DNA from: a virus
Lineage: Duplodnaviria > Heunggongvirae > Uroviricota > Caudoviricetes
IMG/VR virus record: IMGVR_UViG_2778261300_000006
Location: 1 to 19,140 of that record
Reading direction: 5' to 3' (one strand)
Length of the DNA stretch: 19,140 nt
The notes beneath the pieces are model-generated. The model was not told the DNA's origin. It ran no database searches and saw only the letters and a program-made list of their open reading frames with translations. Within the stretch, counting starts at the first letter, position 1. The number at the start of each line of letters is the position of its first letter. This document shows positions 1 through 14,989 of the stretch, piece by piece. A program made the position numbers and the translations under genes.

Positions 1-201
1 TTAGGTAACTTCTTTACCTATTGCAACCGATAGATCTCGCAAAATCCGATAAGTCAAACGACCGCGAGGTAGTTCACTTTTACCAGCCCAGCGACTGACT
101 GCCTGGGTGACTGTTCGTGGTTCATAGCCCGCGTTAAGCGCGAACTGGCGCAAGCTACTGCCTCGTTCAACCAGCCGTGCCCGAACTTGTTGTTTGTTCA
201 T
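1..201 (-). CDS. Ner/Cro-like small HTH DNA-binding regulator
   Basis: 66-aa ORF (ATG at 201; the track's 207 start is GTG). The segment SLRQFALNAGYEPRTVTQAVSRWAGKSE resembles the Mu Ner / Nlp family pattern (SLSALSRQFGYAPTTLANALERHWPKGE) from memory. It is divergent from the plus-strand regulator. The stop codon sits at the window edge (1..3). Confidence 0.55.
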   Translation of the reverse strand: MNKQQVRARLVERGSSLRQFALNAGYEPRTVTQAVSRWAGKSELPRGRLTYRILRDLSVAIGKEVT

Positions 202-289
202 ATGCACCGTGTTCCTGTTAGGTTATGATGTACTCTATTGGGTCTATTGTACACACCCAAATGAGTGTGTCAAATTGAGATATGTTCAA
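202..289. promoter_or_regulatory. Divergent intergenic control region between the Ner-like and XRE-like regulator genes
   Basis: 88-bp AT-rich spacer between two divergently oriented HTH genes. It contains a short inverted repeat, acacac-N9-gtgtgt (about 246..266). Promoters and operators are inferred from geometry only. Confidence 0.3.
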
Positions 290-697
290 ATGAGTACAAA
301 AGAGAGATTGCGTGAAGTGATGGATGCTAATGGCATGACAATAAAGGCATTATCTGACTTATCAAAAATTCCATATCGCTCACTTCAAAACTATTTGCGT
401 GGAGAGAGAGAACCAAACGCAGAGGCTCTTGTTGCGCTAAGTGCCCATTTGGGTGTATCGATCGATTGGCTACTTACCGGTAAAGAACATATTCCATCTA
501 AAGAAATTGTTGCTGTACCAACACAACATCAATTCAGCCCGTCAGACCTTAAAATGCTTGAACTTCTAAACCAGTTAGATCCTGAGGTTCGGCGAGATCT
601 CATGCGAGGCGCTGAAGAAAAACAGCGTGTGATTGAGATGGAAAAACAACTGAAGGAATTATCCGCAACGATTGAGCGGTTAAAAAATGTGGGTTAA
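290..697 (+). CDS. XRE-family HTH transcriptional regulator (repressor-like) with a C-terminal coiled-coil region
   Basis: ATG at 290 (MSTKERLREVMDANGMTIKALSDLSKIPYRSLQNYLRGEREP...) gives a classic XRE/Cro-CI-type helix-turn-helix. The C-terminus is charged and heptad-like (EEKQRVIEMEKQLKELSATIERLK). The track ORF starts at 194, but its N-terminal extension is unlikely to be translated. No S24 peptidase domain is present. Confidence 0.6.
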   Translation: MSTKERLREVMDANGMTIKALSDLSKIPYRSLQNYLRGEREPNAEALVALSAHLGVSIDWLLTGKEHIPSKEIVAVPTQHQFSPSDLKMLELLNQLDPEVRRDLMRGAEEKQRVIEMEKQLKELSATIERLKNVG

Positions 698-767
698 TGT
701 GTTCCTAACGAGAACATATAGCAGAAATTATTTGCCATTAAGCAATAAAAAATAAGGTGGATAGCCA

Positions 768-1775
768 ATGTCTGAGCAGACCATTGAAGTTAAACACGTT
801 GTAGTTCACATTTTAGACAAACAACAAAATGGAGACGCTTCTGAGAGATTGAGTCCTGAAGAAGGTCTAGTTACTGAAGCCTCTCAGCGCCTTATAAACG
901 ATATTTGTGCAAAATATGCAGGACGCACAGGTAAAGGTTATGGCTATTTTGAAGGCGATACGGATAACTATCCTATGGAACGAATGGCTGGGGACTTTCT
1001 CGAAGGTGTTGATGATTTCTACCAAAGTTCCTGCCGAATGATGCATCACCTGACGGAACGTTCTCAGCGAGAAAACATGGCTACTGGTGGTTATGTTCTT
1101 TTTGCAAATATCGTGATAGGACACAATGAACACCTGTTGATAGCTATTGTAAGCGCTACCATTGGGTCCACTGTCACAGATGATTTTAACATCCAAGATA
1201 GTACCTATCTTGATATTGCTAAGCTGCGTATGGCTGGGCGCATTGACTTAACCGCGTGGGAAAGTGGCGCAGAGCGCTATATCAGTTTTCTTAAGGGGCA
1301 AGGTAATGTTTCAAACTATTTTAAACAGTTCCTAGGCTGTAATGATGTCTTAATCGCCAAACGAGAGTCTGAAAAGTTACGTGACGTTTTAAAAGCATTT
1401 GCGGCAGAGAAAGGACTTGACGGCGCTGAAAAAGATGCATTTCTTAAGAGTGCGTTTGAACACTTACATGCACTAAGTAAGGCTGGTGAACCACTTAGTC
1501 TTGAAACCCTTGTTAATGCCATTTGGCCCCAGGCTCCCGAGGAGTTATCTGGTAAACTTGCTGCTGAAGAGTTGGAGTTATCGGATGGCTTCGTTCCTGA
1601 TGGTCGAGTCATTCGGGCTCTGGTATCTTTTAAAGGCAAGTCTAAATATTGGGAACTTAAGTTTGACCGGGAAGGGAAAACTGAAGGCTATATTGATTAT
1701 GATCCGGAAACAAATATTATCACCCTACGTAATGTACCTGAAGAATTTAGGGAAATGTGGATGACTGAGGTTTAA
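768..1775 (+). CDS. NdpA/YejK-like (nucleoid-associated-protein-like) soluble protein; cargo gene A
   Basis: ATG at 768 with RBS AAGGTGG 7 nt upstream. 335 aa. Recalled NdpA-family landmarks: N-terminal I-x-V-K-HVVVHILDK, KGYGYF, and GGYVLFANIV...HLLIAIV. AT-rich relative to the tail genes. This is a recall-based assignment, not a search result. Confidence 0.5.
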   Translation: MSEQTIEVKHVVVHILDKQQNGDASERLSPEEGLVTEASQRLINDICAKYAGRTGKGYGYFEGDTDNYPMERMAGDFLEGVDDFYQSSCRMMHHLTERSQRENMATGGYVLFANIVIGHNEHLLIAIVSATIGSTVTDDFNIQDSTYLDIAKLRMAGRIDLTAWESGAERYISFLKGQGNVSNYFKQFLGCNDVLIAKRESEKLRDVLKAFAAEKGLDGAEKDAFLKSAFEHLHALSKAGEPLSLETLVNAIWPQAPEELSGKLAAEELELSDGFVPDGRVIRALVSFKGKSKYWELKFDREGKTEGYIDYDPETNIITLRNVPEEFREMWMTEV

Positions 1776-1777
1776 TC

Positions 1778-2983
1778 GTGGCGATTTCATTTGAGATGCT
1801 GACAGCTCTGTATCGTCGTATGGAATTCCAAGAGGGGTTTCGTGTCGGTTCGCTGTTGCTCTTAGATCAGTCCGATTGTGATCTGGTTGATACTTTGCTT
1901 GATGATCCTCGTGAATATGGTCTTTCTATTGATACAGGCACTATCGCTCCAGGTAACACGATCATCCTACGTGTGACGTCACCACGGAGTGGACTGGGAC
2001 TTGTGTTTTCCACCCATGAAAAATTGCTAAATGCTCCAAAGCATCAGTGCCTTGAGCCAGCTAATTACTTCATCCTAGAAACAAAATTTCGTAATGATGA
2101 TGAAGATATCCCCGTTTTCATCAGCAACTACCGGAAGATTCTCGAGTTCGTTAACCTGCTAAAAGAGGCCGCGGCCTACTTTGATAACTCAACTTGTCAG
2201 TTAGTTTTTCTGAAAAAAGAAGTTATCAAGCTATTACCGCACTTCGCTGCAGAAAATGTACAAAATTTGCAAAGGGAGTATCTTGATAACCTTATAGCTT
2301 GTTTCAATGATGATACCCATAAGGATCAGAAGCTAGATATTCTGATTGAAAGTATTCAAGCAGTTAGTGATGGAATTGATTCACCTCTAGTATTCGCTTA
2401 TTTACTGGACAATATTCAGCGTCTGCATGAAAAGTTTCTGAAAGGGTATCGTATCTACTCTTCTGGATTCTCTTATGACAAAGTAATGGATCAACTGCGT
2501 GCTGCAAAAGTCGAAGAAATGGGTAAAATCCACAAAGCGTTTTCAGATATCCAGAACCATATACTTGGCATTCCTGTTGCCTCTGTTATCGTAGCTACCC
2601 AATTCAAAGTGGCTACGAAATGGTCAGGCCAAGGGATAACAAACACAATAATTCTTCTGGGATGCATTTTTGCTGCAACGTTAATCTGGCTGGCACTTTC
2701 GAACCAGATGCAATCTATAAAGGCCTTAGGCGAAGAAATTGAATACAAAGAAAAACAGATTAATAAGGAATATTCCTTCATTAAAGATGACGTGGCTGGT
2801 GTATTTAGCAGTATTTCTGCGCGACTAGACACGCAGAAACGTACGTTCTGGATTATACGTGGTGTTCTAGTTATGGGAATTATTACCGCTATCACTGTTT
2901 ATTTTTGGTACACAAAACCAGCCCTTGACTTCATGCAGTACTTGATTCACTGCATGAAGTCTTACTATTCGGTCAAAAGTTGA
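1778..2983 (+). CDS. Membrane protein with a large N-terminal soluble domain and two C-terminal TM helices; cargo gene B
   Basis: GTG at 1778 with GAGG 7 nt upstream, 2 nt after the stop of gene A (operon coupling). Hydrophobic segments ITNTIILLGCIFAATLIWLAL and TFWIIRGVLVMGIITAITVYFWY are separated by a charged helical linker. No recognisable enzymatic motif. Confidence 0.55.
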   Translation: MAISFEMLTALYRRMEFQEGFRVGSLLLLDQSDCDLVDTLLDDPREYGLSIDTGTIAPGNTIILRVTSPRSGLGLVFSTHEKLLNAPKHQCLEPANYFILETKFRNDDEDIPVFISNYRKILEFVNLLKEAAAYFDNSTCQLVFLKKEVIKLLPHFAAENVQNLQREYLDNLIACFNDDTHKDQKLDILIESIQAVSDGIDSPLVFAYLLDNIQRLHEKFLKGYRIYSSGFSYDKVMDQLRAAKVEEMGKIHKAFSDIQNHILGIPVASVIVATQFKVATKWSGQGITNTIILLGCIFAATLIWLALSNQMQSIKALGEEIEYKEKQINKEYSFIKDDVAGVFSSISARLDTQKRTFWIIRGVLVMGIITAITVYFWYTKPALDFMQYLIHCMKSYYSVKS

Positions 2984-3743
2984 GGATAATGAGTTCCTTC
3001 TTGCGACTGGATTTGCCAGTGATCTTGAGGTTGTAGCTGATATCAACCGACTGAATATTTAGACCGTTGAATGCCTGCCGCATTTCCGGGATATCGTTCA
3101 CCGATATAATCATCTTCCCTTTGATCCTGCGTGCTAAATCTGCCATATGATCATAATTTTCTAGTCCGAACTCCACACCATAACCTTCCGTTCCCCAGTA
3201 TGGAGGGTCACAGTAGAACAACGTATGCGGGCGATCATATCGTTCTATGCACTGTTGCCAGTCCATGTGTTCTATGACCGTTCTGGAAAGCCGCAGGTGT
3301 GCCGCTGACAGTTCTTCTTCAATACGCAGCAGGTTGAAGCGTGGCGGGGATATGGTGGAGGTACCAAAGCTGTGCTCCGCCACCTTGCCCCCAAACGCCT
3401 GCTTCTGAAGGTAATAGAACCGTGCTGCACGCTGGATATCCGTCAGTGTTTCTTCCGGGGTGATCTGCAGCCATTTGTAGATCTGCCGGCTGACCAGCGC
3501 CCATTTGAACTGGCGTACAAATTCTTCCAGATGATGTTTTACCACCCGATACAGGTTCACCAGCTCACCGTTGATATCATTAATGACTTCGATCTTGCCG
3601 GGTACCTTAAGAAAATAGAGCGCTGCTGCCCCACAAAACGGCTCCACATAACATTCATGCGCCGGAAACAGCGGCAGGATGTGTTTTGCAAGGCGGCGTT
3701 TGCCACCAATCCATGGAACGATGGGTAATGTCTGCATTTTCAT
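2973..3743 (-). CDS. dam: DNA adenine methyltransferase (Dam-like, D12-class N6-adenine MTase)
   Basis: 256 aa. N-terminal AdoMet-binding motif (EPFCGAAALYF), catalytic DPPY motif (FYCDPPYWG) and WIGGKRRL near the N-terminus. The 3' end overlaps the 3' end of cargo gene B by 11 bp (convergent). Confidence 0.85.
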   Translation of the reverse strand: MKMQTLPIVPWIGGKRRLAKHILPLFPAHECYVEPFCGAAALYFLKVPGKIEVINDINGELVNLYRVVKHHLEEFVRQFKWALVSRQIYKWLQITPEETLTDIQRAARFYYLQKQAFGGKVAEHSFGTSTISPPRFNLLRIEEELSAAHLRLSRTVIEHMDWQQCIERYDRPHTLFYCDPPYWGTEGYGVEFGLENYDHMADLARRIKGKMIISVNDIPEMRQAFNGLNIQSVDISYNLKITGKSSRKKELIILNF

Positions 3744-3990
3744 AATCTGTAAGCCTTTTACAATTATAAAAAATATGGCAGGCTAGTCTGGTCTCGCGAG
3801 ACTGACTGAACCTTGGTCGGCTCACAGCGCATTCCTGTGGGGCGATGGCCAGCCCGGTGTTCGGGTACCGGGCTGGTCGTTCTTTCAAAGCCATCATGCA
3901 GTGCACGTTTACATCTTCACTATTAACGCTGTTTAAAATCCGTATCCCGCCACATTTGTGATGCTGTCTCCACCAAACGAGGAGACACAC

Positions 3991-4341
3991 ATGAAAAACC
4001 TGAAAAAATTCATTCCCCCTGTTAAAAAACCTCGCCTCAGCGGCTGGCTGCTGACCTCAGTGCTGCTGCTGGGCACCATCGCTCTGGTCTCGCCACAGCA
4101 GTTGCCTGTTGTGATCTACAAGCTGGCACTCATCACGCTGGCAGCAGTGCTGGGTTACTGGCTTGACCGTTCGCTCTTCCCCAAAGCCCGTCCCGGTCAG
4201 TACCTGAAACATGACGACAGACTGATGGCTGAAGGGCGTTTCCCTGTGCAGACCGGCCTTCACCTTGTATTTTCTGCTGCGTTAATCCGCCGTGCACTGA
4301 TTGTTGCAGCGGTCTGTCTGGCTGTGGCAACAGGACTGTGA
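3991..4341 (+). CDS. Holin-like small membrane protein (2-3 predicted TM segments)
   Basis: ATG at 3991 with RBS GAGGAG at 3979..3984. 116 aa with hydrophobic stretches WLLTSVLLLGTIALV, VVIYKLALITLAAVLGYWL and ALIRRALIVAAVCLAVATGL. Stop overlaps the start region of the downstream lysis gene. Confidence 0.5.
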   Translation: MKNLKKFIPPVKKPRLSGWLLTSVLLLGTIALVSPQQLPVVIYKLALITLAAVLGYWLDRSLFPKARPGQYLKHDDRLMAEGRFPVQTGLHLVFSAALIRRALIVAAVCLAVATGL

Positions 4342-4343
4342 CC

Positions 4344-4886
4344 ATGAACTGGCCTCAAATCACCCTCATTATTCTGTTCGCCTTTGGTCTGGGCGTAACC
4401 GCCATCAGGCACGGAGAACCACGTAACGATAAATACAGCTTCTGGTGGCAGCTTGCTGGCAACCTGGTGATTGTCTGGCTGCTCTGGTGTGGCGGCTTCT
4501 TCAGTCAGGCCCGCGCAGCGCAGCCTCCGCAGGCTGCGCTGCAGTATCGCGATGATGTGATCCGTAATGCCCGGCTTGAATGGGGACTGTCTGCGCCGGT
4601 GGCCGATTTCGCCGCGCAACTGCATCAGGAAAGCGGCTGGCGACCTGATGCGGTCTCGCCGGCTGGCGCTCAGGGACTGGCGCAGTTCATGCCTGCCACT
4701 GCCGACTGGATAAGCCAGTTGATACCGATGCTGAGCAGTCGTGAGCCGTTTAATCCTGCATGGGCTATCCGGGCGCTGGTCAGCTATGACCGCTGGCTGT
4801 GGCAGCGCGTAAGCGCCGCCAACGACTGCGAGCGTATGGCCATGACACTGTCGGGCTATAACGGTGGTCTACACCCTGCGCCGTAA
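4344..4886 (+). CDS. Signal-anchored lytic transglycosylase (endolysin-like, SLT domain), apparently truncated or frameshifted
   Basis: N-terminal hydrophobic segment (WPQITLIILFAFGLGVTAI) followed by the family-1 SLT signature ...HQESGWRPDAVSPAGAQGLAQFMPATADWI... and YNGG. The ORF stops right after the YNGG motif; see the 4891..5016 feature. Confidence 0.6.
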   Translation: MNWPQITLIILFAFGLGVTAIRHGEPRNDKYSFWWQLAGNLVIVWLLWCGGFFSQARAAQPPQAALQYRDDVIRNARLEWGLSAPVADFAAQLHQESGWRPDAVSPAGAQGLAQFMPATADWISQLIPMLSSREPFNPAWAIRALVSYDRWLWQRVSAANDCERMAMTLSGYNGGLHPAP

Positions 4887-4890
4887 GGGG

Positions 4891-5016
4891 ATGCCTGTTG
4901 CCGACAAGTACGACGGAGCCGGCGGCAAGGTGAAGTACTGCCGTTATACCGATATCTACAAAGTCGCCGTGGTTGGTGGCGATGCCGGGTATCTCATTAC
5001 CGGTATCAGTAAATAA
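4891..5016 (+). pseudogene. +1-frame continuation of the transglycosylase gene (frameshifted 3' portion or separate 41-aa ORF)
   Basis: The +1 frame reads ...YTLRRKGMPVADKYDGAGGKVKYCRYTDIYKVAVVGGDAGYLITGISK and ends at 5016, exactly where the RBS (AAGGAGG) of the next gene begins. The frame switch would lie near the ggtggt run around 4862..4870. Confidence 0.4.
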
Positions 5017-5025
5017 GGAGGCGTT

Positions 5026-5364
5026 ATGGGAACCACTCAGCAGGTCATTCTGATCACAACCGTAACGGCAGGGGCCGCACTGGCACAGCAGCGTTTTGTC
5101 GGGGCAGATAATACCCCCTGTAAAGCCGGTGCCGCAGCGCTCGGGGTTGCCGAAGTGGATGCTGTTACCGGCGACAGCACGCCGGTGAGCGTTCTGGGCA
5201 TTATTGCTGTCGAGGCCGGGGCCGCTGTCAGCCGTGGTGTGGCTGTTCAGTCAGATGCTCAGGCCAGAGCCGTGCCGCAGTCCGGCGACGGTAAATCCTG
5301 TGGTATTGCACTTGATGAAGCCGGGGGTGAAGGCGACGTCATTCGTATCCTGCGCGGGGTGTGA
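5026..5364 (+). CDS. Ala/Gly-rich small structural protein (possibly Mu gp35-like, DUF2190-type)
   Basis: ATG at 5026 with perfect RBS AAGGAGG. 112 aa. Its position immediately upstream of a DUF1320-like gene matches Mu late-operon order. The family call is from memory and weak. Confidence 0.45.
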   Translation: MGTTQQVILITTVTAGAALAQQRFVGADNTPCKAGAAALGVAEVDAVTGDSTPVSVLGIIAVEAGAAVSRGVAVQSDAQARAVPQSGDGKSCGIALDEAGGEGDVIRILRGV

Positions 5365-5365
5365 C

Positions 5366-5812
5366 ATGTACTGCACCCTGGAGGATTTGCTTGCGCAGGT
5401 GCCGGAACGAACGCTGATCGAGCTCACCAGTGAAGAGATGGACTTCGACTCGCCTGCAACAGTGAATACCCGTGTGGTGGACAGCTGTATCCGCTATGCC
5501 GACGAGCTGATTGATGCCCATCTGCGCGGACGCTATATCCTGCCACTGGCAGAGATACCGACTGTTCTGCGGGACATTGCCATCACGCTGGTCCGTTACC
5601 GGCTCTACGCCCGCCGCCCGGAAGGTGACCTCCCGGATACGGTGAAGGATGACCACAAAGAAGCGCTGCGGCAACTCAGGGAGTTACGTGATAACAGGCT
5701 CACGCTGGGGCTGCCGTCCACTCAGAAAGATGTGCCTGAGCCTGGCGAGTTTCGTGTACGCAGCCGCCCGGCCACTTTCGGCGGTCGTGACGGTTTACTG
5801 GAGAAATACTGA
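5366..5812 (+). CDS. Mu gp36-like protein (DUF1320 family; head-tail joining or tail completion)
   Basis: MYCTLEDLL...RYILPLAEIPTVLRDIAITLVRYRLYARRP...HKEALRQLRELRDNRLTLGL matches the recalled DUF1320 pattern (RY.LPL...P.VL..A.D.A.YRLY.RR...YK.A...L..I..G...LG). Start is 2 nt after the upstream stop. Confidence 0.65.
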   Translation: MYCTLEDLLAQVPERTLIELTSEEMDFDSPATVNTRVVDSCIRYADELIDAHLRGRYILPLAEIPTVLRDIAITLVRYRLYARRPEGDLPDTVKDDHKEALRQLRELRDNRLTLGLPSTQKDVPEPGEFRVRSRPATFGGRDGLLEKY

Positions 5813-6276
5813 TGAACGTTCTGCCCGTCCTTGATGCGGTACTGGCCCGGTTACGCGAGAAGCTGCCGCAACTGCAGGTGGAGTACTTCCCGGAGAAACC
5901 GGCTGAATATCGCCTGAACCATCCGGTTGGCGCGTTGCTGCTGAGCTATGCCGGTTCGCGCTTTGACAGGCCGGATGATACCGGTGCGGTGATCCAGTCT
6001 CAGACTATCCAGCTCTGCGTCACGGTGGTCTTCCGCCAGCTCAACGGTAAAAAAGGGGCGATTAATGTCCTGGATGCTGTCCGCCGCATTCTCGGCGGCC
6101 ACACCCCGCCCGGCTGCCGCCGCCGTATCTGGCTGACCCGCGAGGTGTTTATCGGTGAAGTCAGGGGGCTGTGGCAATACGCCCTCGACTTCGCGACTGA
6201 AAGCGTCTTTATCGAAGACAGCGATTTACCGTCCGGCCCGCTGTTAACCGAAGTGAACTATGAGGAAAGCGAGTGA
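5812..6276 (+). CDS. Mu gp37-like virion morphogenesis / tail completion protein (tentative)
   Basis: ATG overlaps the upstream stop (TGATG) and GGAG lies 8 nt upstream. 154 aa. Assignment is by position between the gp36-like gene and the sheath gene in Mu-like order. Confidence 0.45.
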   Translation: MNVLPVLDAVLARLREKLPQLQVEYFPEKPAEYRLNHPVGALLLSYAGSRFDRPDDTGAVIQSQTIQLCVTVVFRQLNGKKGAINVLDAVRRILGGHTPPGCRRRIWLTREVFIGEVRGLWQYALDFATESVFIEDSDLPSGPLLTEVNYEESE

Positions 6277-6527
6277 TGAAAGAATACCGCTATTCCGGCC
6301 CGGCCAGCGGCGTCACGCTGTCGGACGGAACCGAAATCCTGCTCTGGCCGGGGAAGACGGTTTCCCTGCCGGAGGAGCATGAATACGTGAAGGTACTGGT
6401 GGCGCTGAAGCATCTGACGCCGGTACCAGAAGATACTAAACCCGCCGTCACACCGGCTGTGCAGTCACCAAAGCGCAGAAGCAGCAGTGACAGCGAAGTG
6501 AAAACGGAGGACTCCCATGGCAGCTAA
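6276..6527 (+). CDS. Small protein with a disordered, charged C-terminus (Mu gp38-like position)
   Basis: ATG at 6276 overlaps the upstream TGA. 83 aa. The 3' end overlaps the sheath gene start by 11 nt. Confidence 0.4.
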   Translation: MKEYRYSGPASGVTLSDGTEILLWPGKTVSLPEEHEYVKVLVALKHLTPVPEDTKPAVTPAVQSPKRRSSSDSEVKTEDSHGS

Positions 6528-7944
6528 CTATCTGCATGGCGTCGAAACCATTGAGGTGGAAAACGGAGCCCGCCCGGTTAAAACGGTGAAATCTGCCGTT
6601 ATTGGCCTGATTGGTACCGCCCCGATGGGGGATGTCAATACGCTGGTACAGTGCCTGTCTGAGAAAGACGCTGCGGCATTTGGCAGCCAGTTCACCGGCT
6701 TTACCATTCCGCAGGCGCTGGATGCGATTTATGACCATGGTGCAGGCACCGTTCTGGTCATTAACGTACTCGATCCGTCTGTGCATAAAACCGCTGTGGT
6801 CAGTGAGAATGTGTCGTTCGACAAGGCGACAGGCAGAGCCCGGCTGGCTAATCCGGTGGTCGCGCAGCTGGTACTGAAACCGGACAGCGACGGTCAGCCT
6901 TATGTTGAAGGTCAGGACTACTCGCTTGATGCACAGACCGGGGTGATTACTAACCTGGGTAAAAGCATTGCTGCAGATGCAACGGTGAAGGCCAGCTATA
7001 ACTATGCTGATCCGACCAAAGTCACCCCGGCTGATATCATCGGTACCGTTAACGCTGCAGGCAACCGTACCGGCATGAAGCTGCTTAACGACAGTTTTAA
7101 CCTGTTTGGCTACTTCGCCAAAATCCTGATTGCTCCGGTATTCTGCACCCAGAACAGCGTCTCGGTTGAGCTTATCGCCATGGCTGAGAAACTGGGAGCA
7201 GTAACCTATATTGATGCGCCGGTTGGTACCACTTTTGCGCAGGCTCTGGCGGGACGTGGCCCGGAAGGCACCATTAACTTTAATACCAGCTCTGACCGTG
7301 TCCGCCTGTGCTACCCGCATGTGAAGGTATATGACCCGGTGACGAACACGGAGCGTCTGGAGCCACTGAGCCAGCGTGCGGCGGGCCTGCGTGCCAAAGT
7401 CGACCTGGACAAAGGGTACTGGTGGTCATCCTCCAATCAGGAAATTCTGGGGATCACCGGCGTGGAGCGCCAGCTGTCGGCAATGATTGACGATCCGCAG
7501 AGCGAGGTGAACCTGCTTAACGAACAGGGGATCACCACGGTATTCAGCAGTTACGGCAGCGGCCTTCGTCTGTGGGGTAACCGGACGGCAGCATGGCCAA
7601 CGGTCACCCATATGCGTAACTTTGAGAACGTTCGCCGCACCGGTGATGTGATCAACGAGTCCATTCGTTACTTCAGCCAGCAGTACATCGACATGCCGAT
7701 TACTCAGGCGCTGATTGATGCACTGACGGAGTCGGTCAACGCCTACGGTCGCAAAATGACTGGTGATGGTGCGGTACTGGGCTTCCGTTGCTGGTTTGAT
7801 CCGGCCCGCAATCCGGAGACGGAGCTGGCCGCCGGGCACCTGTTGCTGAGCTACAAATATACGCCACCACCGCCGCTGGAGCGACTGACGTTTGAGACTG
7901 AAATCACCTCGGAATACCTGTTAACCCTGAAAGGGGGCAACTGA
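6517..7944 (+). CDS. Contractile tail sheath protein
   Basis: 475 aa with RBS GGAGG 6 nt upstream. Size and position are right for a myovirus sheath, and it is followed immediately by a tube-sized gene. Sequence is reminiscent of Mu L / P2 FI-type sheath proteins. Confidence 0.85.
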   Translation: MAANYLHGVETIEVENGARPVKTVKSAVIGLIGTAPMGDVNTLVQCLSEKDAAAFGSQFTGFTIPQALDAIYDHGAGTVLVINVLDPSVHKTAVVSENVSFDKATGRARLANPVVAQLVLKPDSDGQPYVEGQDYSLDAQTGVITNLGKSIAADATVKASYNYADPTKVTPADIIGTVNAAGNRTGMKLLNDSFNLFGYFAKILIAPVFCTQNSVSVELIAMAEKLGAVTYIDAPVGTTFAQALAGRGPEGTINFNTSSDRVRLCYPHVKVYDPVTNTERLEPLSQRAAGLRAKVDLDKGYWWSSSNQEILGITGVERQLSAMIDDPQSEVNLLNEQGITTVFSSYGSGLRLWGNRTAAWPTVTHMRNFENVRRTGDVINESIRYFSQQYIDMPITQALIDALTESVNAYGRKMTGDGAVLGFRCWFDPARNPETELAAGHLLLSYKYTPPPPLERLTFETEITSEYLLTLKGGN

Positions 7945-8465
7945 TGTCAAAGATTGAGATAAACCGAATCACGAATGCCAACATCTATCTGGATGGTACT
8001 AACCTGCTGGGACGGGCTGAGGAAGTTAAACTCCCCGATGTCTCCATGATTATGCAGGAGCACAAGGCACTGGGGATGGTGGGTAAGGTGGAACTCCCGG
8101 CTGGTTTTGACAAACTGGAAGGCGAAATCAAATGGAACAGCTTTTACCGCGATGCGATGTTGTCTGCCGCGAACCCGTACAAGTCGCTGGCGCTGCAGTG
8201 TCGCTCCAGCGTCCAGCGCTACAGCTCGCAGGGGCTGATCGACGAAATCCCGCTGGTCACCTTCCTGACAATTATGTTCAAGAAGAACCCGCTGGGGACG
8301 TTCAAACAGCACGAGAACGCCGAGTTCTCCAGTAGCTTCACCTGCACGTATATCAGACAGGTACTGGATGGTGAAGAGTTGCTGCAACTGGACTATCTGG
8401 CCAACATCTTCCGCGTCGGTGGCGTTGATCAACTGACTGACTATCGAATCAATATCGGGGGCTGA
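7944..8465 (+). CDS. Tail tube protein
   Basis: 173 aa. ATG overlaps the sheath stop (TGATG) and RBS AAGGGGG lies upstream. Canonical position after the sheath. Confidence 0.8.
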   Translation: MSKIEINRITNANIYLDGTNLLGRAEEVKLPDVSMIMQEHKALGMVGKVELPAGFDKLEGEIKWNSFYRDAMLSAANPYKSLALQCRSSVQRYSSQGLIDEIPLVTFLTIMFKKNPLGTFKQHENAEFSSSFTCTYIRQVLDGEELLQLDYLANIFRVGGVDQLTDYRINIGG

Positions 8466-8467
8466 CG

Positions 8468-8749
8468 GTGAGTGTTGAACTGACTGACAAAGGAGGGCGA
8501 TGTGCGTCACTGGGCATGTCAAATGGTACGTGGTTTACCCTCCTTGATATTCCGGGGGTGGAGACCCTCTTTAATACCCGTAAAACCAATGACCCGATTG
8601 ACTGCACACGTTCAAAGGCCCGCAAACTGGCCGATTTGATTGAAGCATGGGAGCCGCCCGACCAGTGGTTCTCCGGCACCGGCAACTCTGAGGGAAAGGC
8701 GCTTCTCATCGCTTTCCTGCGTAACTGCAAGGGTTTTCGCACTTGCTGA
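8468..8749 (+). CDS. Hypothetical small protein between tube and chaperone genes
   Basis: 93-aa ORF with GTG start at 8468 (alternative in-frame ATG at 8516). No recognisable family. Followed directly by a terminator-like hairpin. Confidence 0.3.
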   Translation: MSVELTDKGGRCASLGMSNGTWFTLLDIPGVETLFNTRKTNDPIDCTRSKARKLADLIEAWEPPDQWFSGTGNSEGKALLIAFLRNCKGFRTC

Positions 8750-8756
8750 CATCACA

Positions 8757-8778
8757 GGGGCTCCGGCCCCTTCTTTTT
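8757..8778 (+). terminator. Rho-independent terminator-like hairpin inside the tail operon
   Basis: GGGGC-tccg-GCCCC stem-loop (8757..8770) followed by TTCTTTTT (8771..8778). Confidence 0.45.
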
Positions 8779-8846
8779 AATCCCCTTTAATATCCGTCAC
8801 GTCCACCGCCAGACATACTGCTCTGAATTTACAAAGGAGTATGATC

Positions 8847-9182
8847 ATGTCACAGACCCAGTCCGATACTTTTACGCTGTCTTATCCTTTCACCACTGCT
8901 GCAGGTACCAGAATTGAACAGATTGAACTGAAACGCCTGACAGTAAAAGACCTGAAGCAGGTGCGCAAAATCAACAAAGACCCGACAGACTGGGACGAAC
9001 CACTGATTGCCCGTAGCACCGGTATCCTCCCGGAAGACCTCGATAACATGGATCTTGCCGACTATATGGAGCTGCAGAAACGATTTCAGAAAATCACTGG
9101 GCTGGGCAAGAGCGACAAAAACACTGATGCAGGTGCAGGGCCTGCTGGCGAGATGGTTCAGGTTTCAACCGGGGGAGATTGA
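8847..9182 (+). CDS. Tail assembly chaperone (P2 gpE / lambda gpG-type), upstream frame
   Basis: ATG at 8847 with AAGGAG 7 nt upstream (the 8841 ATG is too close to the RBS). Small acidic protein directly upstream of the tape measure gene, with an overlapping out-of-frame ORF, the hallmark of the conserved chaperone frameshift pair. Confidence 0.65.
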   Translation: MSQTQSDTFTLSYPFTTAAGTRIEQIELKRLTVKDLKQVRKINKDPTDWDEPLIARSTGILPEDLDNMDLADYMELQKRFQKITGLGKSDKNTDAGAGPAGEMVQVSTGGD

Positions 9183-9264
9183 TGCCCTCGATACTGACGA
9201 TCTGGAGATGTGGCTGGAGCAGGCTGAAGAGCAAATCAAAAGCGAGTTCGGCGACAATCAGTAA
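9007..9264 (+). CDS. Frameshift extension of the tail assembly chaperone (E'-like C-terminal extension)
   Basis: ORF in the +1 frame relative to 8847..9182, overlapping its 3' end. It encodes an acidic helical tail (...IDALDTDDLEMWLEQAEEQIKSEFGDNQ). It has no plausible independent start (TTG in the track). Only the 3' part (roughly 9170..9264) would be translated after the shift. Confidence 0.45.
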   Translation: MPVAPVSSRKTSITWILPTIWSCRNDFRKSLGWARATKTLMQVQGLLARWFRFQPGEIDALDTDDLEMWLEQAEEQIKSEFGDNQ

Positions 9265-9357
9265 CAACGTATCACTTAACAGCCGCCAGTCGCGGCTGTT
9301 CTGCATGGGTTTCAGACACTTCCCTTCCGTTTTTTTTGCTTTCAGAGGATAGCCACC

Positions 9358-11823
9358 GTGGCCAGTGAATTTTCAGTCGGCGTCATTATTGGCGGCATTG
9401 TCGGGAGCAGCTTCCGCTCAGCCGTCAGTGGCACCCGACGCGCCCTTGATTCCCTTGGTGATACCTCCCGCCGTCTGCAGGAACGCCAGAATGCCTTAAC
9501 CCGGGCAACAGAACGTTATGGTCAACTGGGTTCTTCCCGGATGCAGCATCTCAACAGCGAGTTGCTGCGGGTAAGCCGCACCATGGAGCAAATTGAACGT
9601 CAGCAGCGCCGTCTGTCAGCAGTATCAGCCACCGGTGATGCGTTGAAGGCTAACCGCCTGGCGCTCTATGGTCAGGGTGCAGAAACCTATGCTATTGGCA
9701 GAACGCTGGGCGCACCGGTCATGGCCTCGGTTAAACAATATGCCTCGTTTGAATCACAGTTGCGGGATATCAGTGTCACAGGAGACCTGGATGCAAAACA
9801 GGAACGTGCAATTGGCCAGGCTATCAGACAGGCCTCGCTGAAGGTTAACCAACTGCAGGAGTCTCTGTTAGGGGGAGTCGGACAATTAGTTGCTGATGGT
9901 ATGGCCCCCGAACGGGCAGCAACGTTTGCAGAGATGCTTGGAAAGACCGCTACAGCAACCAAAGCCGATATGACCGACCTTGCCAAAATGACTTATGCCT
10001 TCAGCGATGCACTCAGAATCACTGATGCGAAAGAACTTGAACAGGCGTTTGGTATTGCGGCAACAGGAGCCAAACTTGGGTCATTTGAGCTGAAGGATAT
10101 GGCAAAAGCATTACCCGGTATGGCTAAAGCCTTCGCTGCTCGTGGTATTTATGGAAAAGATGCGATTACCCAGATTGTTGCCAGTCTGGAGGTCGGTAAA
10201 GGTAGTGGCTCTGCAGAGGAAGCGGTCACCAATATGTCCAACTGGCTGGCAGCAATGGGCCGCGGAGATACCATCCAGAAATATGCTAAAGCCGGGGTGG
10301 ATTACCAGGGGTCAATGCAGAATTACGTCGCTCAGGGTTTTTCGCAGTACGAAGCTTCACTGATGATTGCCAACCGTTTTATCGACAGTAAAGGCAAAGC
10401 GTTCTTGCAGCAATGGAAAGCTGCAGGAGCAAGAGGCGATCAGGAAGGTCAGCAGAAACTCATGGAGTCATTTGGTCTGGCTGAGGTCTTTACCGATATT
10501 CAGACTGTCAACCATTTACTGTCAATGCGACAGGGCTGGGATAAATACCTTTCCAGTAAGCAGGAAATGAATACTCCGGCTGCAATGTCTACCCTGGATA
10601 AGGATGCTGCAAAGCAGAATGATACGCTTGAAGGTCGCTGGCGCAGAATGCAGATCGGCTTTAATGATTCTGCTATCAGCATCGGGCAATCCTTGCGTCC
10701 GGCTTTGCTCCAGTTGGGTGAAACATTTATTCCTTTAATGGACAGTGTTGGCAAATGGATAGCGGCAAATCCGCAGCTCGTCAGCAGCACCATAAAGGTT
10801 GTGGGCGCATTACTCGCTTTCAGGATGGCCACTATCGGTCTCAAGCTTGGGCTGAATCTCCTTCTTTCCCCCTTTGTAAGCGTCTGGAAAAATGCTGTTT
10901 TACTTCGGGCCAACTGGCTTCGTCTGACGCTCGCACTGGGGGAAGGCGGTAAACTCCGCTGGCTGGTGACAGGCTTTGGTGCTGTCGCCAGAGGAGCCAG
11001 AACACTGGGTGGTGTGCTCTCAGGGGGGCTGGTTCGCGGAATTATGAGCGCCGGGCGTGCCGTTCTCTGGATTGGCCGGGCGCTGCTGATGAATCCCATC
11101 GGTCTCGTTATCACCGCCGTCGCGGCAGCAGCTTACCTTATCTACCGCAACTGGGGCGCAGTCAGTAGCTGGTTTAAACAGCGCTGGGCTGACATTCAGG
11201 AAGCCTTTAACGGCGGCATCGTGGGAATTGGTAAACTGCTGGTTAACTGGTCTCCGGCTGGTCTGCTTTATAAAGCCTTTGCGGCTGCGCTGAAATATCT
11301 CGGCGTTGATCTGCCGGCGAAATTCACCGACTTCGGTGGTCATCTTATTGACGGGTTGATAAATGGCATCAGAAACAAATGGGCGTCACTCAAAACCAGC
11401 GTAACCGGAATGGGTGACAGCATCAGTGACTGGTTCAGCGAAAAGCTGGGCATCCATTCACCGAGTCGCGTGTTTATGGGCTTTGGTGACAATATCGCGC
11501 AGGGTGCCGCCATTGGCCTGCAACGGACCACTCCGCTTGCTGCACTGGCCGGGCAGCGCCTGGCCGCTGAAATGACACCGGATGTTCCCCGTATCCCGTC
11601 GCCGGAAATCATGGCTGCCGGATATTCAGGCCGTGGCGCAACTGCAACCGGCGGTGGAGCGTCTGGCGGTATCCAGGTCAGCTTTAATCCTCAGTTTTTC
11701 CTCAATGGTAAGGAAACCGCAGCGCCTGCCGGGCTGGCTGGTGCCCTGAATATGAGCCTGCATGAGCTGGAAAAAATGCTGGAGCGTCTGCTGGCTCAGA
11801 AACAACGTAAGGAGTACAGCTGA
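9358..11823 (+). CDS. Tail tape measure protein
   Basis: 821 aa. GTG start with AGAGGA 8 nt upstream. Long helical N-terminal region, Gly/Ala-rich hydrophobic central segments and overall architecture typical of tape measure proteins. Confidence 0.85.
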   Translation: MASEFSVGVIIGGIVGSSFRSAVSGTRRALDSLGDTSRRLQERQNALTRATERYGQLGSSRMQHLNSELLRVSRTMEQIERQQRRLSAVSATGDALKANRLALYGQGAETYAIGRTLGAPVMASVKQYASFESQLRDISVTGDLDAKQERAIGQAIRQASLKVNQLQESLLGGVGQLVADGMAPERAATFAEMLGKTATATKADMTDLAKMTYAFSDALRITDAKELEQAFGIAATGAKLGSFELKDMAKALPGMAKAFAARGIYGKDAITQIVASLEVGKGSGSAEEAVTNMSNWLAAMGRGDTIQKYAKAGVDYQGSMQNYVAQGFSQYEASLMIANRFIDSKGKAFLQQWKAAGARGDQEGQQKLMESFGLAEVFTDIQTVNHLLSMRQGWDKYLSSKQEMNTPAAMSTLDKDAAKQNDTLEGRWRRMQIGFNDSAISIGQSLRPALLQLGETFIPLMDSVGKWIAANPQLVSSTIKVVGALLAFRMATIGLKLGLNLLLSPFVSVWKNAVLLRANWLRLTLALGEGGKLRWLVTGFGAVARGARTLGGVLSGGLVRGIMSAGRAVLWIGRALLMNPIGLVITAVAAAAYLIYRNWGAVSSWFKQRWADIQEAFNGGIVGIGKLLVNWSPAGLLYKAFAAALKYLGVDLPAKFTDFGGHLIDGLINGIRNKWASLKTSVTGMGDSISDWFSEKLGIHSPSRVFMGFGDNIAQGAAIGLQRTTPLAALAGQRLAAEMTPDVPRIPSPEIMAAGYSGRGATATGGGASGGIQVSFNPQFFLNGKETAAPAGLAGALNMSLHELEKMLERLLAQKQRKEYS

Positions 11824-12707
11824 TGTTTGCCGTACTGGGTGATATTGAGTTTGAACTGATTACCTACTGGGACGGCTTCGAGGCCACGTTTGGCGTCGAT
11901 TATGCGGAGCATGCCCGCATCGAGGGTAAACCCGGCCTGCAGTTTGTCGGCGACAGGCTGGACGAAATCCAGATAAGCCTGGTCTTCCATCAGCATTATT
12001 GTGTGCCCGACGTGGAGCTGGCGAGAGTGCGAACAGCCATGAAGGCCCATCAGGCACTGGCGCTGGTCTTCGGCAACGGTGACTATCGCGGCTGGTTCGT
12101 GATTACCGATGTGACCGCAACCAGCGAGCAGACAGACAGCACCGGTAACGTGCTGGCTGTCAGTGCCACCGTGTCTCTCCGGGAATACACCGGTGACCCG
12201 AAAAATCCTCTGCAACCGCCGGCAATACGCAGGCAGGTTCCCGGTGCCGGAGCTGTATCGGGTGCTGTTCCATCGCCTTCCGGGGTGGCGCAGTTCGTCC
12301 GTAACGGCGTCAACTATGCGAAACAGGCGCAGTCTGTACTCCAGACCACTATCAGTGCCGTTCGGGTGGCGCAGAAAATGAAGGGTAACCCCGTTGTCGC
12401 GCTGACCCGTGTGCCTGGACTGATGAGCGGACTGGGTAATATATCCGGAGCTCTGGGGAAAAGTGTTCCGGCGTTTAATGCACTCTCTGAATCCATGCCC
12501 GATGCCATCAGTCTGGCCAGAACAGCCAGTGAGGCAGCCACGTATGTACAGCAGGCGCAGTCGGCGCTGAGTGGTGTGGACAAAAGAAATATTGCAGGTG
12601 CTCTGGATACCGTTTCCGGGCAGCTTAACGCCGCCGGCACAGCATTCAACCGCATGTCTCCGGGATTAAGTGCAATGGCCGCCAGAATACTGACGAGGAG
12701 TGTGTGA
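11823..12707 (+). CDS. P2 gpU-like tail protein (DNA-circulation-type N-terminal domain)
   Basis: ATG overlaps the tape-measure stop, with AAGGAG 8 nt upstream. N-terminus MFAVLGDIEFELI resembles gpU-family starts. Position is after the tape measure. Confidence 0.55.
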   Translation: MFAVLGDIEFELITYWDGFEATFGVDYAEHARIEGKPGLQFVGDRLDEIQISLVFHQHYCVPDVELARVRTAMKAHQALALVFGNGDYRGWFVITDVTATSEQTDSTGNVLAVSATVSLREYTGDPKNPLQPPAIRRQVPGAGAVSGAVPSPSGVAQFVRNGVNYAKQAQSVLQTTISAVRVAQKMKGNPVVALTRVPGLMSGLGNISGALGKSVPAFNALSESMPDAISLARTASEAATYVQQAQSALSGVDKRNIAGALDTVSGQLNAAGTAFNRMSPGLSAMAARILTRSV

Positions 12708-12919
12708 TGTTTCTTGAACATATTACCCGTGACGGAGAGCGCTGGGATTCGCTGGCATGGCAGTACTACGGTGACCCGCTGGGCTATCCCCGGATTATTG
12801 CAGCCAATCCGCACGTGGCCATTACGCCGGTGCTGCCCTCCGGGGTGTTGTTACTGATCCCGGTTATTGAGGCTGAAGATGCCCGCACAGAAGAGGATGT
12901 TGCTCCATGGCTGAGATAA
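12707..12919 (+). CDS. Tail protein X-like (P2 gpX family)
   Basis: 70 aa. ATG overlaps the upstream stop, with GAGGAG 6 nt upstream. Pattern W..LAWQYYGDPLGY..IIAANP......LP.G..L.IP resembles the gpX / LysM-like family. Confidence 0.6.
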   Translation: MFLEHITRDGERWDSLAWQYYGDPLGYPRIIAANPHVAITPVLPSGVLLLIPVIEAEDARTEEDVAPWLR

Positions 12920-14061
12920 ACAGTACTGCGCAAGACGTATCAGCGTTAACCGGCGTCAGCGATGTGCTGACGCCGGTGTTCACTCTGTGGTATCTGCAGA
13001 AAAATATCACCTCTGATATCGCGCCTTATGTCACCCGTGTGACCTGGAGCGATAACATCAAAAATGAGTCCGATACCATTGAGGTGGAGCTGGATGACAC
13101 CGATGGTCGCTGGCTGGATAAGTGGTATCCGGGCAAGGGTGACACGCTGACGCTGAAAATGGGTTATCAGGGCGAGAAACTGCTGTCCTGCGGTACATTC
13201 TCAATAGACGAGATCGAAGTGAGTTCGCCCGCGTCCGTTGTCGCTATCCGTGGGGTGGCCACCTCGGTTAACAGTGCTCTGCGGACTAAATCCAGCCGTG
13301 GTTTTGAGAACACCACGCTGGCAGCTGTTGCGGGGCGGATTGCCAGAAAGCACCGACTGAAACTGGTGGGCAGCATTGAGTCCATCAAAATCGACCGGGT
13401 GACCCAGTATGCTGAAACCGACGTGGGTTTTCTGCGCCGGCTGGCCAGCGAGTATGGTTATGCAGTGAAAGTGGTCAGTGACCAGTTGATTTTTTCTCAT
13501 CTGGCCACACTGCGCAGTCAGGAGCCGGTCAGGCAGTTAAAACCGCAGGATGTGGCCCGCTTTTCCCTGCGTGACACCATCAACCGGGTCTATAAATCTG
13601 CAAAGGTAAAACACCAGAAAAGCAGCAGTAAAAAACTGATCGTCTACGAAGCTGATGGTGGTACCCGTGAAAGCGACAAAAAGCTCAAAGGTGGTAAGGT
13701 TACCAGCGCTGACTCACTTAAAGTTAACAGCCGTGTCAGCGACCCGGACAGTGCCCGGATTAAAGCGGATTCAGCACTGGCCAGACATAACGAATACCAG
13801 CAGAACGGCTCCCTGACGCTGACGGGAACGCCTCAACTGACAGCAGGCAACAAAATTGAACTGGTGGGCTTTGGACAGTTATCCGGTCCATGGCTGATAA
13901 TCACTGCCCGCCATGCGTTTGAGCGTAACAGCGGCTACACCACAGAGCTGGAAGTGGCACGGGGGCCAGTCACAAGAGGGAAAAAACAAAAAACTCAGAA
14001 ACTCACGGTTTATCACCCGGATGGCAGTACATCGACGGTGATTAAGGAGAAGAAAAAATGA
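12907..14061 (+). CDS. P2 gpD-like / Mu P-like tail protein (baseplate hub-type)
   Basis: 384 aa. Position between the gpX-like and spike genes. Lys-rich C-terminus. 3' end overlaps the next start (ATGA). Confidence 0.65.
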   Translation: MAEINSTAQDVSALTGVSDVLTPVFTLWYLQKNITSDIAPYVTRVTWSDNIKNESDTIEVELDDTDGRWLDKWYPGKGDTLTLKMGYQGEKLLSCGTFSIDEIEVSSPASVVAIRGVATSVNSALRTKSSRGFENTTLAAVAGRIARKHRLKLVGSIESIKIDRVTQYAETDVGFLRRLASEYGYAVKVVSDQLIFSHLATLRSQEPVRQLKPQDVARFSLRDTINRVYKSAKVKHQKSSSKKLIVYEADGGTRESDKKLKGGKVTSADSLKVNSRVSDPDSARIKADSALARHNEYQQNGSLTLTGTPQLTAGNKIELVGFGQLSGPWLIITARHAFERNSGYTTELEVARGPVTRGKKQKTQKLTVYHPDGSTSTVIKEKKK

Positions 14062-14585
14062 CTGGTGTCACCCGTCAGGTCGGTACGGTCAGTGCCGTTG
14101 ATGCCGACAGGGTTCAGGCCCGCGTTCGTCTGCCTGAATGCGATAATCTGCGCACAAACTGGCTTAACGTGCTACAGCGCAATACCCAGGATAACAAGGA
14201 TTACTGGCTCCCTGACGTGGGGGAGCAGGTTGAGGTGCTGCTCGATGCCAACGGCGAGGATGGTGTTATTCTGGGCGCGGTGTACTCAGACGTCGATAAA
14301 CCGCCGTTCAGTGATAAAAACGTCCGGGGTACGAAATACGCTGATGGCGCGGAGTTCAGTTATAACCGCGCGACCCATACGCTGACGGTCAGAGGAGGTA
14401 TTGAGCGTATCGTGGTGGAGGTTGCCGCTGATATCTCTCTCAAAGGGAAAAAACTCGACCTCACGGGAGTTACCACGATCAACGGCCCCGCGACACTCAA
14501 TGGTGATCTGGAAATCAACGGAAGCGCCCATGCAACGGGTAACATATTTGCTGATGGTCAGAACTCTAATCACCATTCCCATTGA
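14058..14585 (+). CDS. Baseplate central spike protein (gpV-like)
   Basis: 175 aa with AAGGAG RBS. gpV-like N-terminal OB-fold region. His-rich C-terminal apex (...GQNSNHHSH). Confidence 0.75.
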   Translation: MTGVTRQVGTVSAVDADRVQARVRLPECDNLRTNWLNVLQRNTQDNKDYWLPDVGEQVEVLLDANGEDGVILGAVYSDVDKPPFSDKNVRGTKYADGAEFSYNRATHTLTVRGGIERIVVEVAADISLKGKKLDLTGVTTINGPATLNGDLEINGSAHATGNIFADGQNSNHHSH

Positions 14586-14641
14586 ACCTTCTTAAACGCC
14601 TTTAATATCGGCGCTTACTTCCCGGGGGCAATACTGCCTCC

Positions 14642-14989
14642 ATGAAAACGACCTCAGTATTCTGGCAACCAGCTCTGCAGGCTCCCGGCGAAATCGTCCG
14701 GGGGCTGGATGATATCCGGCAGTCCATCCAGATCATCCTGCGGACTCCCCGCGGCAGCGACCCGCATCGCCCGGAGTTCGGCAGCAATCTGCACCTTTAT
14801 ATCGACTGGCCTGTCGGCCGGGCCATTCCGCATGTGGTTCGCGAATCCGTCGATGCCATCAGGCGCTGGGAACCCCGCTGCCAGCTTATGTCGGTTAAAC
14901 CCGCCGTCGACGGCGAACATCTTACGCTCCGGGTGAGCTGGAAAGGCTCAGACGGACAACCCCGTACTCAGGAACTGCTATGGCGCTGA
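14642..14989 (+). CDS. Baseplate wedge protein (gpW / gp25-like)
   Basis: 115 aa. Pattern ...IRQSIQIILRTPRGSDPHRPEFGSNLHLYIDWP... is typical of the GPW_gp25 family. 3' end overlaps the J-like start. Confidence 0.75.
   Translation: MKTTSVFWQPALQAPGEIVRGLDDIRQSIQIILRTPRGSDPHRPEFGSNLHLYIDWPVGRAIPHVVRESVDAIRRWEPRCQLMSVKPAVDGEHLTLRVSWKGSDGQPRTQELLWR

Follow-up and report, generated by a model that had tools for sequence, protein, structure and literature searches.

Anti-phage operons centred on a YejK-like nucleoid-associated protein (NAP) have been described in Escherichia coli as DS-1 and PANGU type II. Here, a gene pair designated A+B is compared with them. The pair occupies positions 768–2983 of a 19,140-nucleotide (nt) stretch of Caudoviricetes DNA (IMG/VR record IMGVR_UViG_2778261300_000006, positions 1 to 19,140), which is called the window below and whose numbering is used throughout. 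The comparison indicates that A+B, an accessory cassette of a Mu-like prophage, is probably a two-gene anti-phage module of the DS-1/PANGU type II kind that acts by abortive infection.

The DefensePredictor study (PMC13092281; Science 2026) validated 42 transcription units, among them DS-1 (working id D390). The two proteins of DS-1, referred to below as DS-1A and DS-1B, are WP_000355468.1, an NA37 protein of 391 amino acid residues (aa) whose N-terminus carries a zinc ribbon, and WP_000150292.1, which is 404 aa long. DS-1 reduces plating of phage Bas1 by 7.6 logs, of Bas26 by 2.7 logs, and of Bas3 and T3 by 1.7 logs. The only mechanistic remark made in that paper is that the YejK domain is new to defence (PMC13092281).

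The PANGU preprint (bioRxiv 10.64898/2026.04.06.716658, April 2026) describes NAP-centred defence operons, of which type II ("Cluster 2") combines a YejK-like NAP, Pag2A, with a transmembrane (TM) effector, Pag2B. The acidic N-terminal "DNA-mimicking" (DMK) domain of Pag2B binds Pag2A with a dissociation constant (KD) of 19 nM. With an E. coli type II system, the test phage (T4 or Bas34) plates 3–4 logs lower; both genes are needed, neither alone is toxic, and infection is abortive. T4 escapes through mutations in denA (EndoII), and Pag2A-GFP departs from the nucleoid upon infection. Phages T1 and T5, which also degrade host DNA, were not stopped by the two PANGU systems studied (bioRxiv 10.64898/2026.04.06.716658).

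Gene structure of the A+B pair

The features of the pair are listed below.

768–1775, + strand: gene A, NA37/YejK-family protein, 335 aa (PF04245, phrog_3767).
1778–2983, + strand: gene B, 401 aa, GTG start (phrog_5023; no Pfam family).
1778–2413, + strand: B aa 1–212, acidic alpha/beta N-terminal domain (AlphaFold model with a predicted local distance difference test score, pLDDT, of about 88–95; no Pfam family).
2414–2560, + strand: B aa 213–261, basic juxtamembrane helix, holding most of the most conserved block of the B family.
2561–2983, + strand: B aa 262–401, membrane region (Kyte-Doolittle hydropathy, model helices).
About 718/741–2991, + strand: mobile low-GC cassette carrying A+B (blastn boundaries, GC content 41.5%).

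The stop codon of A (TAA, 1773–1775) is followed by 2 nt, TC, and then by the GTG start codon of B. Shine-Dalgarno-like sequences precede gene A (AAGGTGG, 754–760) and gene B (GAGG, 1766–1769). A first-pass annotation of the window had placed open reading frames (ORFs) at 290–697, 768–1775 (335 aa) and 1778–2983 (401 aa, GTG start) and had called the last two tightly coupled, and the sequence bears out both statements. Judged by similarity searches, A and B are genuine genes and not chance ORFs, because A matches phrog_3767 with an E-value of 7e-117, B matches phrog_5023 with an E-value of 2e-142, and both are annotated in RefSeq as coding sequences (CDS; WP_000003711.1 and WP_001007984.1, respectively). 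The RefSeq name of A is that of a generic nucleoid-associated protein, and B is named hypothetical.

Homology of A+B to DS-1

Both proteins were compared with the NCBIfam models NF053868 (DS1_1_antiphage, cut-off 330 bits) and NF053869 (DS1_2_antiphage, cut-off 315 bits). A matched the former with an E-value of 1.4e-17 (63.7 bits) and B matched the latter over aa 74–366 with an E-value of 3e-21 (75.9 bits), both scores lying far under the cut-offs. BLASTP comparison with the DS-1 proteins themselves gave 23% identity for A (E-value 8e-9) and 23% identity across 302 residues for B (E-value 6e-10). In addition, a profile built from 28 diverse B homologues was aligned with DS-1B in the hhalign program with 95.9% probability over 272 columns, and the DS1_2 model was matched by all 28 of these B-family members (best E-value 2.4e-27), none of them near the cut-off. 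At the level of sequence, A+B is thus homologous, in both genes, to an experimentally validated E. coli anti-phage pair, and it represents a divergent subfamily. The first-pass annotation had recognised no named defence system in these proteins; they are distant homologues of DS-1A and DS-1B. Its proposal of a candidate undescribed exclusion or defence module is supported by the same homology as far as defence is concerned, but the module can no longer be called undescribed, DS-1 and PANGU having been published.

The two loci are also organised alike. The DS-1 genes (220602–221777 and 221780–222994) are separated by a 2-nt gap with the NAP gene first, the same translationally coupled order as in A+B, and in both operons the NA37/YejK protein is followed by a protein of about 400 aa with a soluble N-terminus and a hydrophobic C-terminus. 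The differences lie in the level of identity (just about 23%) and in the zinc ribbon of DS-1A (CLECG...CDKCG in WP_000355468.1), which A lacks: A begins straight at the NA37 domain (MSEQTIEVKHVVVH...), and the N-terminal cysteine pairs are absent. Furthermore, A is much nearer to YejK (PDB 9be2; E-value 7e-30) than DS-1A is (E-value 1e-9 to the same structure), the TM segments are clearer in B than in DS-1B according to hydropathy, and A+B is prophage-borne. WP_000003711 and WP_001007984 had no match in the portion of the DefensePredictor supplements that was searched (PMC13092281).

Comparison with PANGU type II

In the PANGU work, candidate systems were bicistrons of adjacent genes less than 40 bp apart; in A+B, the gap is 2 nt and both genes lie on the same strand. 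A is a full-length NA37 protein, and B contains C-terminal hydrophobic segments at aa 285–311 and 356–378, plus a marginal one at aa 262–280. The N-terminal part of B (aa 1–212) has a net charge of -14 and an isoelectric point (pI) of 4.6, its acidity being a charge measure only. A+B therefore shares with PANGU type II a YejK-like NAP and an effector-like partner that is acidic in its N-terminal domain and TM in its C-terminal one, and both are found in E. coli. In contrast, the PANGU systems were found by linkage to defence islands, and prophages are unmentioned in the preprint, whereas A+B sits in a slot on the lysogeny side of a prophage. By analogy of architecture, A+B likely belongs to PANGU Cluster 2.

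Gene A

According to the Pfam search, A matches the NA37 family (PF04245) with an E-value of 1e-80 and 272 bits, with residues 12–327 of A covering positions 1–324 of the 325-position model. The NdpA/YejK assignment in the first-pass annotation was thereby substantiated, and A contains each of the motifs it cited (HVVVHILDK, KGYGYF, and GGYVLFANIV). The pI of A is 4.9. A and the chromosomal YejK (NdpA), whose structure has been solved (PDB 9be2), share fold family and length and align end to end.

That end-to-end alignment is the one point in favour of A being the housekeeping YejK orthologue with B an unrelated neighbour, a reading refuted by the score of A against the YejK equivalog model (186 bits, below the cut-off of 341), which makes A a paralogue, by its place in a mobile operon within a prophage cassette of 41.5% GC, by its presence in 19 of 5426 E. 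coli genomes, and by its consistent coupling to B. The concern raised in the first-pass annotation, that A might be a bona fide YejK in its ordinary chromosomal setting, is answered by the same observations. By analogy, A would be the sensor of the pair, a counterpart of DS-1A and Pag2A.

Gene B

The acidic N-terminal domain of B is compared above with that of PANGU effectors. In the B family, the net charge of this domain has a median of -9 and ranges from -18 to -2. By analogy with the DMK domain of Pag2B, aa 1–212 may be a putative NAP-binding "DNA-mimic" domain. No resembling structure was found for it among solved or viral structures.

The most conserved block of the family, GYxxFxSGFSYDKxxDQLxxAKVEEMGKIHKxFSDIQN, falls mostly within the juxtamembrane helix, and its tail, ILGIPVAxVIVATQ, extends into aa 262–277. 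Ten residues are invariant in the 28 B sequences (G223, Y224, F231, S232, Y233, K235, K250, D257, I258, and Q259). In the AlphaFold model, aa 213–273 form a single long helix.

The membrane region contains hydrophobic segments at aa 262–280 (nt 2561–2617; marginal, highly conserved), 285–311 (nt 2630–2710), and 356–378 (nt 2843–2911), with Kyte-Doolittle maxima of 1.62, 2.33, and 1.95, respectively. The modelled helices span aa 282–331, 333–378, and 380–400, with a helical hairpin of about 45 residues between the last two hydrophobic segments. Polar residues N309, Q310, E320, R349, and Q353 are invariant in this region in the same 28 sequences. Two C-terminal TM helices had been claimed for B at first pass; two strong segments are indeed present, but the third, marginal and conserved, makes a three-helix membrane region as likely as one with two TM helices. 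By analogy with the published effectors, aa 262–401 would be the effector part of the protein.

As for structural relatives, the B-family profile found nothing below an E-value of 0.97 among PDB sequences, and the modelled fold had no significant match in the PDB or BFVD, only generic helical bundles with a loosely CorA-like layout. According to the model, B may thus have a fold without a solved relative, composed of an acidic alpha/beta domain, a long helical stalk, and two to three C-terminal membrane helices. An exhaustive profile search showed that the family comprises 1,279 clusters at 50% identity; among the best 150 relatives, full-length matches are about 390–410 aa long.

Co-occurrence and distribution of A and B

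A pattern scan with one genome per species yielded 55 loci with a B relative, which belong to Gamma-, Beta-, and Alphaproteobacteria and a few other metagenome-assembled genomes. An A homologue lies immediately upstream of B in 52 of the 55, at an estimated distance of a few to about 40 nt. When IMG/VR was scanned independently, 45 viral loci were found, 43 of which have A upstream of B, the other two being cut by the contig end. Overall, 95 of 100 retrieved loci have A and B side by side, with similarly tight spacing, and the remaining five contain a partial B only. Across 91 loci, the identities of A and of B to the window pair are correlated (r = 0.97; 0.91 without near-identical loci), as is expected of co-inherited neighbours, so that the correlation alone is no proof of interaction. 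A is the more conserved of the two in 87 of these 91 loci.

Three genome loci in Cupriavidus, in which B occurs without A, were considered as a separate architecture and rejected, each holding a C-terminal remnant beside a nitrilase gene. This 203-aa ORF, found on chromosomal contigs and on a plasmid (loci L051–L053 and L114, 4507–5118), corresponds to B aa 191–392 with 44% identity; it overlaps the end of the nitrilase-family gene, and no A gene is present. It is most likely the remnant of a decayed cassette.

The pair travels together in unrelated elements (Mu-like and lambdoid prophages, other phages, a plasmid, and an island), a point on which the first-pass annotation had made its proposal depend. 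Among the 55 genome loci, only about 8 are Mu-like prophages related to that of the window; among the 45 viral loci, about 20 are. Two different lambdoid prophages, in Citrobacter and Salmonella, hold A+B at a site typical of morons, flanked by antiterminator Q and the holin/lysis genes and encoded on the opposite strand. Other carriers are the Sinorhizobium phage phi2LM21, the Klebsiella phage Kp4865-4, a Sphingomonas plasmid, and, in Paraburkholderia, an island where the pair lies beside a gene for an Mrr-type nuclease (Mrr_cat/NA-iREase).

The Citrobacter lambdoid prophage (L058–L060, 12039–17155) also contains colicin-domain (PF01024) and Schlafen/AlbA_2 genes within 8 kb of A+B, and one Citrobacter genome adds a reverse transcriptase followed by an SMC/AAA_15/AAA_21 protein nearby. 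This prophage region looks like an accessory or defence gene cluster.

Host prophage and cassette boundaries

The window is 100% identical to a region of E. coli CE0011b, where it is part of a Mu-like transposable prophage inserted inside emrA. Leftward from a Ner-like gene, this prophage encodes a DDE transposase, a MuB-like ATPase, Gam, and Mor; rightward, it carries the repressor, A, and B, next dam in convergent orientation, and after it the lysis, head, and tail genes. The features flanking A+B are listed below.

1–207, - strand: divergent Ner/Cro-like ORF, 68 aa (weak winged helix-turn-helix, HTH, match to HTH_35, E-value 0.003).
273–246, - strand: sigma-70-like site of the leftward early operon (promoter scan, 11 of 12 positions matched).
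290–697, + strand: repressor-like gene with an XRE/cI-type HTH, 135 aa (HTH_3, E-value 2e-12; Phage_CI_repr, E-value 1.7e-6).
698–767, + strand: repressor-A intergenic region, containing the left junction of the cassette and no terminator-like site.
2973–3743, - strand: dam, Dam-family N6-adenine methyltransferase (PF02086, E-value 7e-28; TIGR00571, 116.9 bits against a cut-off of 114.85).

The divergent ORF is likely a Ner/Cro-like early regulator. The product of 290–697 also matches PHROG transcriptional repressor families (RefSeq CDS WP_000104669.1), and its gene probably comes first after the promoter on the transcript that includes A+B. The dam gene is convergent with B and overlaps its end by 11 nt (2973–2983); because it is kept in sister prophages with other cargo, it is part of the prophage backbone and forms the right flank of the slot, outside the A+B module.

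The cassette is present in 19 of 62 matching E. coli genomes (5426 complete genomes were searched). Sister E. coli Mu-like prophages carry other cargo between the repressor gene and dam: one type has a 175-aa ORF there, and another has two ORFs, of 297 and 145 aa, that overlap. The edges of the cassette were delimited using blastn against loci L002, L065, L066, L004, and L005. Nucleotide homology to the sisters with other cargo ends at 717 and restarts at 2992 or 3052. With prophages of Brenneria and Pectobacterium, whose repressor is a different one, homology starts at 741. The differing cargo thus defines a cassette of about 718–2991, which brought about 27–50 nt of DNA upstream of A. Its composition differs from that of its surroundings: the GC content is 41.5% for A+B, 49.3% for dam, and 54.5% for the remaining window. 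The compositional foreignness pointed out at first pass is therefore real, but smaller than the hand-counted 37% against 54%.

A and the repressor gene lie on the same strand, 70 nt apart, and the terminator scan found no terminator-like site between 697 and 768. The counts of the promoter and terminator scan were at chance level, so that no promoter was assigned to A+B. Given that the cassette brought at most about 50 nt of upstream DNA and that no terminator-like site intervenes, transcription from the repressor side would extend into A+B in the lysogen; the pair is probably transcribed together with the repressor gene or immediately downstream of it.

The alternative-cargo slots, matching 718–2991 of the window, are located at 5543–6070 of L065 and 6276–7566 of L066. 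The cargo genes in them had no NCBIfam or PADLOC match, and the slot is therefore not established as a hotspot of known defence genes; they may be candidates for accessory or defence functions at a site prone to swapping. Between dam and holin there is a second variable slot. In the window, it is empty (3744–3990, about 247 nt), while in the sisters (L065, 7132–7698; L066, 8791–9899) it holds a DUF2441 gene in one case and two hypothetical genes in the other. In a Brenneria Mu-like prophage with a different repressor, a 178-aa predicted membrane protein (L004, 6087–6623) precedes A+B, followed by a gap of about 365 nt, which means that the cassette is not invariably right behind the repressor gene. 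In the unrelated Sinorhizobium phage phi2LM21 (L113, 1622–3718), A+B is likewise followed at once by a convergent adenine methyltransferase gene; this repeated neighbourhood may be preferred or a coincidence.

The octamer GTGTTCCT is found at 209–216, in the divergent early/repressor control region, and at 699–706, 2 nt past the repressor stop codon and shortly ahead of the cassette junction. The window contains three copies where 0.5 would be expected, a count reached in 3 of 200 shuffles; the octamer could be an operator-like site or a chance repeat. A repeat search within 1–800 gave nothing informative.

In CE0011b, emrA (L001, 10432–11394) is annotated in RefSeq as a pseudogene without its C-terminus and adjoins the phage Mor gene. 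Its truncation by the prophage means that the EmrAB efflux adaptor is disrupted in that strain.

Comparison with lambda Rex and Kiwa

In the lambda Rex system, a cytoplasmic sensor activates a membrane effector, which leads to abortive infection; RexB has a four-TM architecture. The parallel with cI-rexA-rexB drawn in the first-pass annotation is borne out as regards layout, with a repressor, a soluble protein, and a membrane protein encoded in that order by the same strand at the immunity side of the prophage, in a variable slot right after the repressor gene and with no terminator-like site between. Equally sound was its statement that neither protein resembles RexA or RexB, since a Pfam scan of A and B at E-values up to 1 returned no Rex family. 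A is a YejK paralogue, not RexA, and B combines an N-terminal domain of about 210 aa with two to three membrane helices. The parallel is therefore, as far as sequence comparison goes, one of layout and logic only and not of homology.

Kiwa also pairs a membrane protein (KwaA) with a DNA-binding protein (KwaB) in defence, and B aa 262–394 gave a weak PADLOC match to KwaA (E-value 8e-5). Membership of B in Kiwa was rejected, as KwaA matches were found in only 2–3 of 28 B-family members and A had no PADLOC match.

Proposed mechanism and alternative explanations

If the mechanism resembles that described for PANGU, A would normally be bound to chromosomal DNA as a YejK-like NAP. Degradation of the host chromosome by an infecting phage would free A, which could then bind the acidic DNA-mimicking N-terminal domain of B. 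This binding would activate the membrane region of B, probably through oligomerisation or the opening of a channel or pore, with collapse of the membrane potential. The infected cell would no longer support phage growth, and the lysogen population, together with its prophage, would be protected.

A defence role as such is very probable, and we hold the assignment of 768–2983 to abortive-infection modules of the DS-1/PANGU type II kind with fairly good confidence. Several points weigh against it. Both proteins score far below the DS-1 cut-offs, their identity to DS-1 is low, and A is devoid of the zinc ribbon; the likeness to PANGU type II concerns architecture and not the sequences of Pag2A and Pag2B; and the protective function ascribed to A+B and its subfamily is drawn by analogy from published relatives. 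The preprint itself leaves the step from Pag2A to Pag2B activation open (bioRxiv 10.64898/2026.04.06.716658). Among PADLOC (2023) models, A had no match, and B had only the weak, non-reproducible one to KwaA. The promoter-like matches near the pair do not exceed chance. Finally, the same slot, on the repressor side and before the lysis genes, recurs in about 20 Mu-like viral contigs, with 26–46% identity of B in the very divergent ones, which leaves some room for a phage-specific role.

It is also possible, and is put forward tentatively, that A+B represents a distinct, prophage-adapted lineage of NAP sensors with membrane effectors, a repressor-wired and widespread functional analogue of RexAB whose trigger and membrane action may differ from those of PANGU.

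The strongest of the competing explanations, plausible though much less likely, keeps A+B as a defence or exclusion module and replaces the PANGU trigger or logic: A might respond directly to phage DNA on its entry or to replication intermediates, as in Rex or Kiwa, or B might block DNA entry at the membrane with no killing. The activation step of type II effectors, left open as noted, gives scope for this, and the position behind the repressor gene mirrors that of rexAB. The strongest targets of DS-1 are Bas1, Bas26, Bas3, and T3, while the two PANGU systems studied did not stop T1 or T5, and these differences suggest that the trigger may vary among subfamilies. However, the sole mechanistic data on pairs of a NAP and a TM protein concern nucleoid release after EndoII-dependent damage and binding to an acidic domain, and B has such an acidic domain; similarity to RexA and RexB is absent, and the KwaA match is confined to 2–3 of 28 relatives.

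Improbable, in our estimation, is a role of A+B in the biology of the prophage itself, with A shaping or silencing DNA or aiding transposition or target choice and B serving as a membrane tether or regulator. Mu-type transposition uses host nucleoid proteins, and the recurrence of the pair at one site in about 20 Mu-like viral contigs, very divergent ones included, would fit such a role. Yet close sister prophages have other genes in the slot and dispense with A+B, and the pair also resides on a plasmid, in islands outside phages, and in the lambdoid moron slot, where the late genes run on the other strand; moreover, relatives were validated as defence when cloned alone in a phage-free host.

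There is very little to commend a toxin-antitoxin or addiction cassette in which B is a membrane toxin restrained by A. A small, tightly coupled, mobile gene pair with a membrane protein, and the greater conservation of A than of B at 87 of 91 loci, could be read in this way, but neither gene of PANGU type II is toxic alone, the counterpart of A in that system is an activator or sensor and not an antitoxin, and the proteins, of 335 and 401 aa, are both large, A being a complete NAP of the DNA-binding type.

Implications for temperate phages and their lysogens

The kind of system described here is already known from DS-1 (2025/2026) and PANGU type II (2026), to which A+B is a divergent, prophage-borne addition. 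Because this subfamily is nearer to YejK than DS-1 is and B has clear membrane helices, it offers a good system for the question of how a NAP activates a membrane effector. The variability of the slot behind the repressor gene points to further uncharacterised cargo in sister prophages, possibly including defence genes. If A+B is indeed a distinct lineage, it would be a widespread and mechanistically tractable functional analogue of lambda RexAB. If the module acts as proposed, some E. coli strains hold an immunity pair that is named generically or as hypothetical and is missed by the PADLOC 2023 models, and Mu-like and lambdoid temperate phages would spread a nucleoid-integrity alarm that guards their lysogens.

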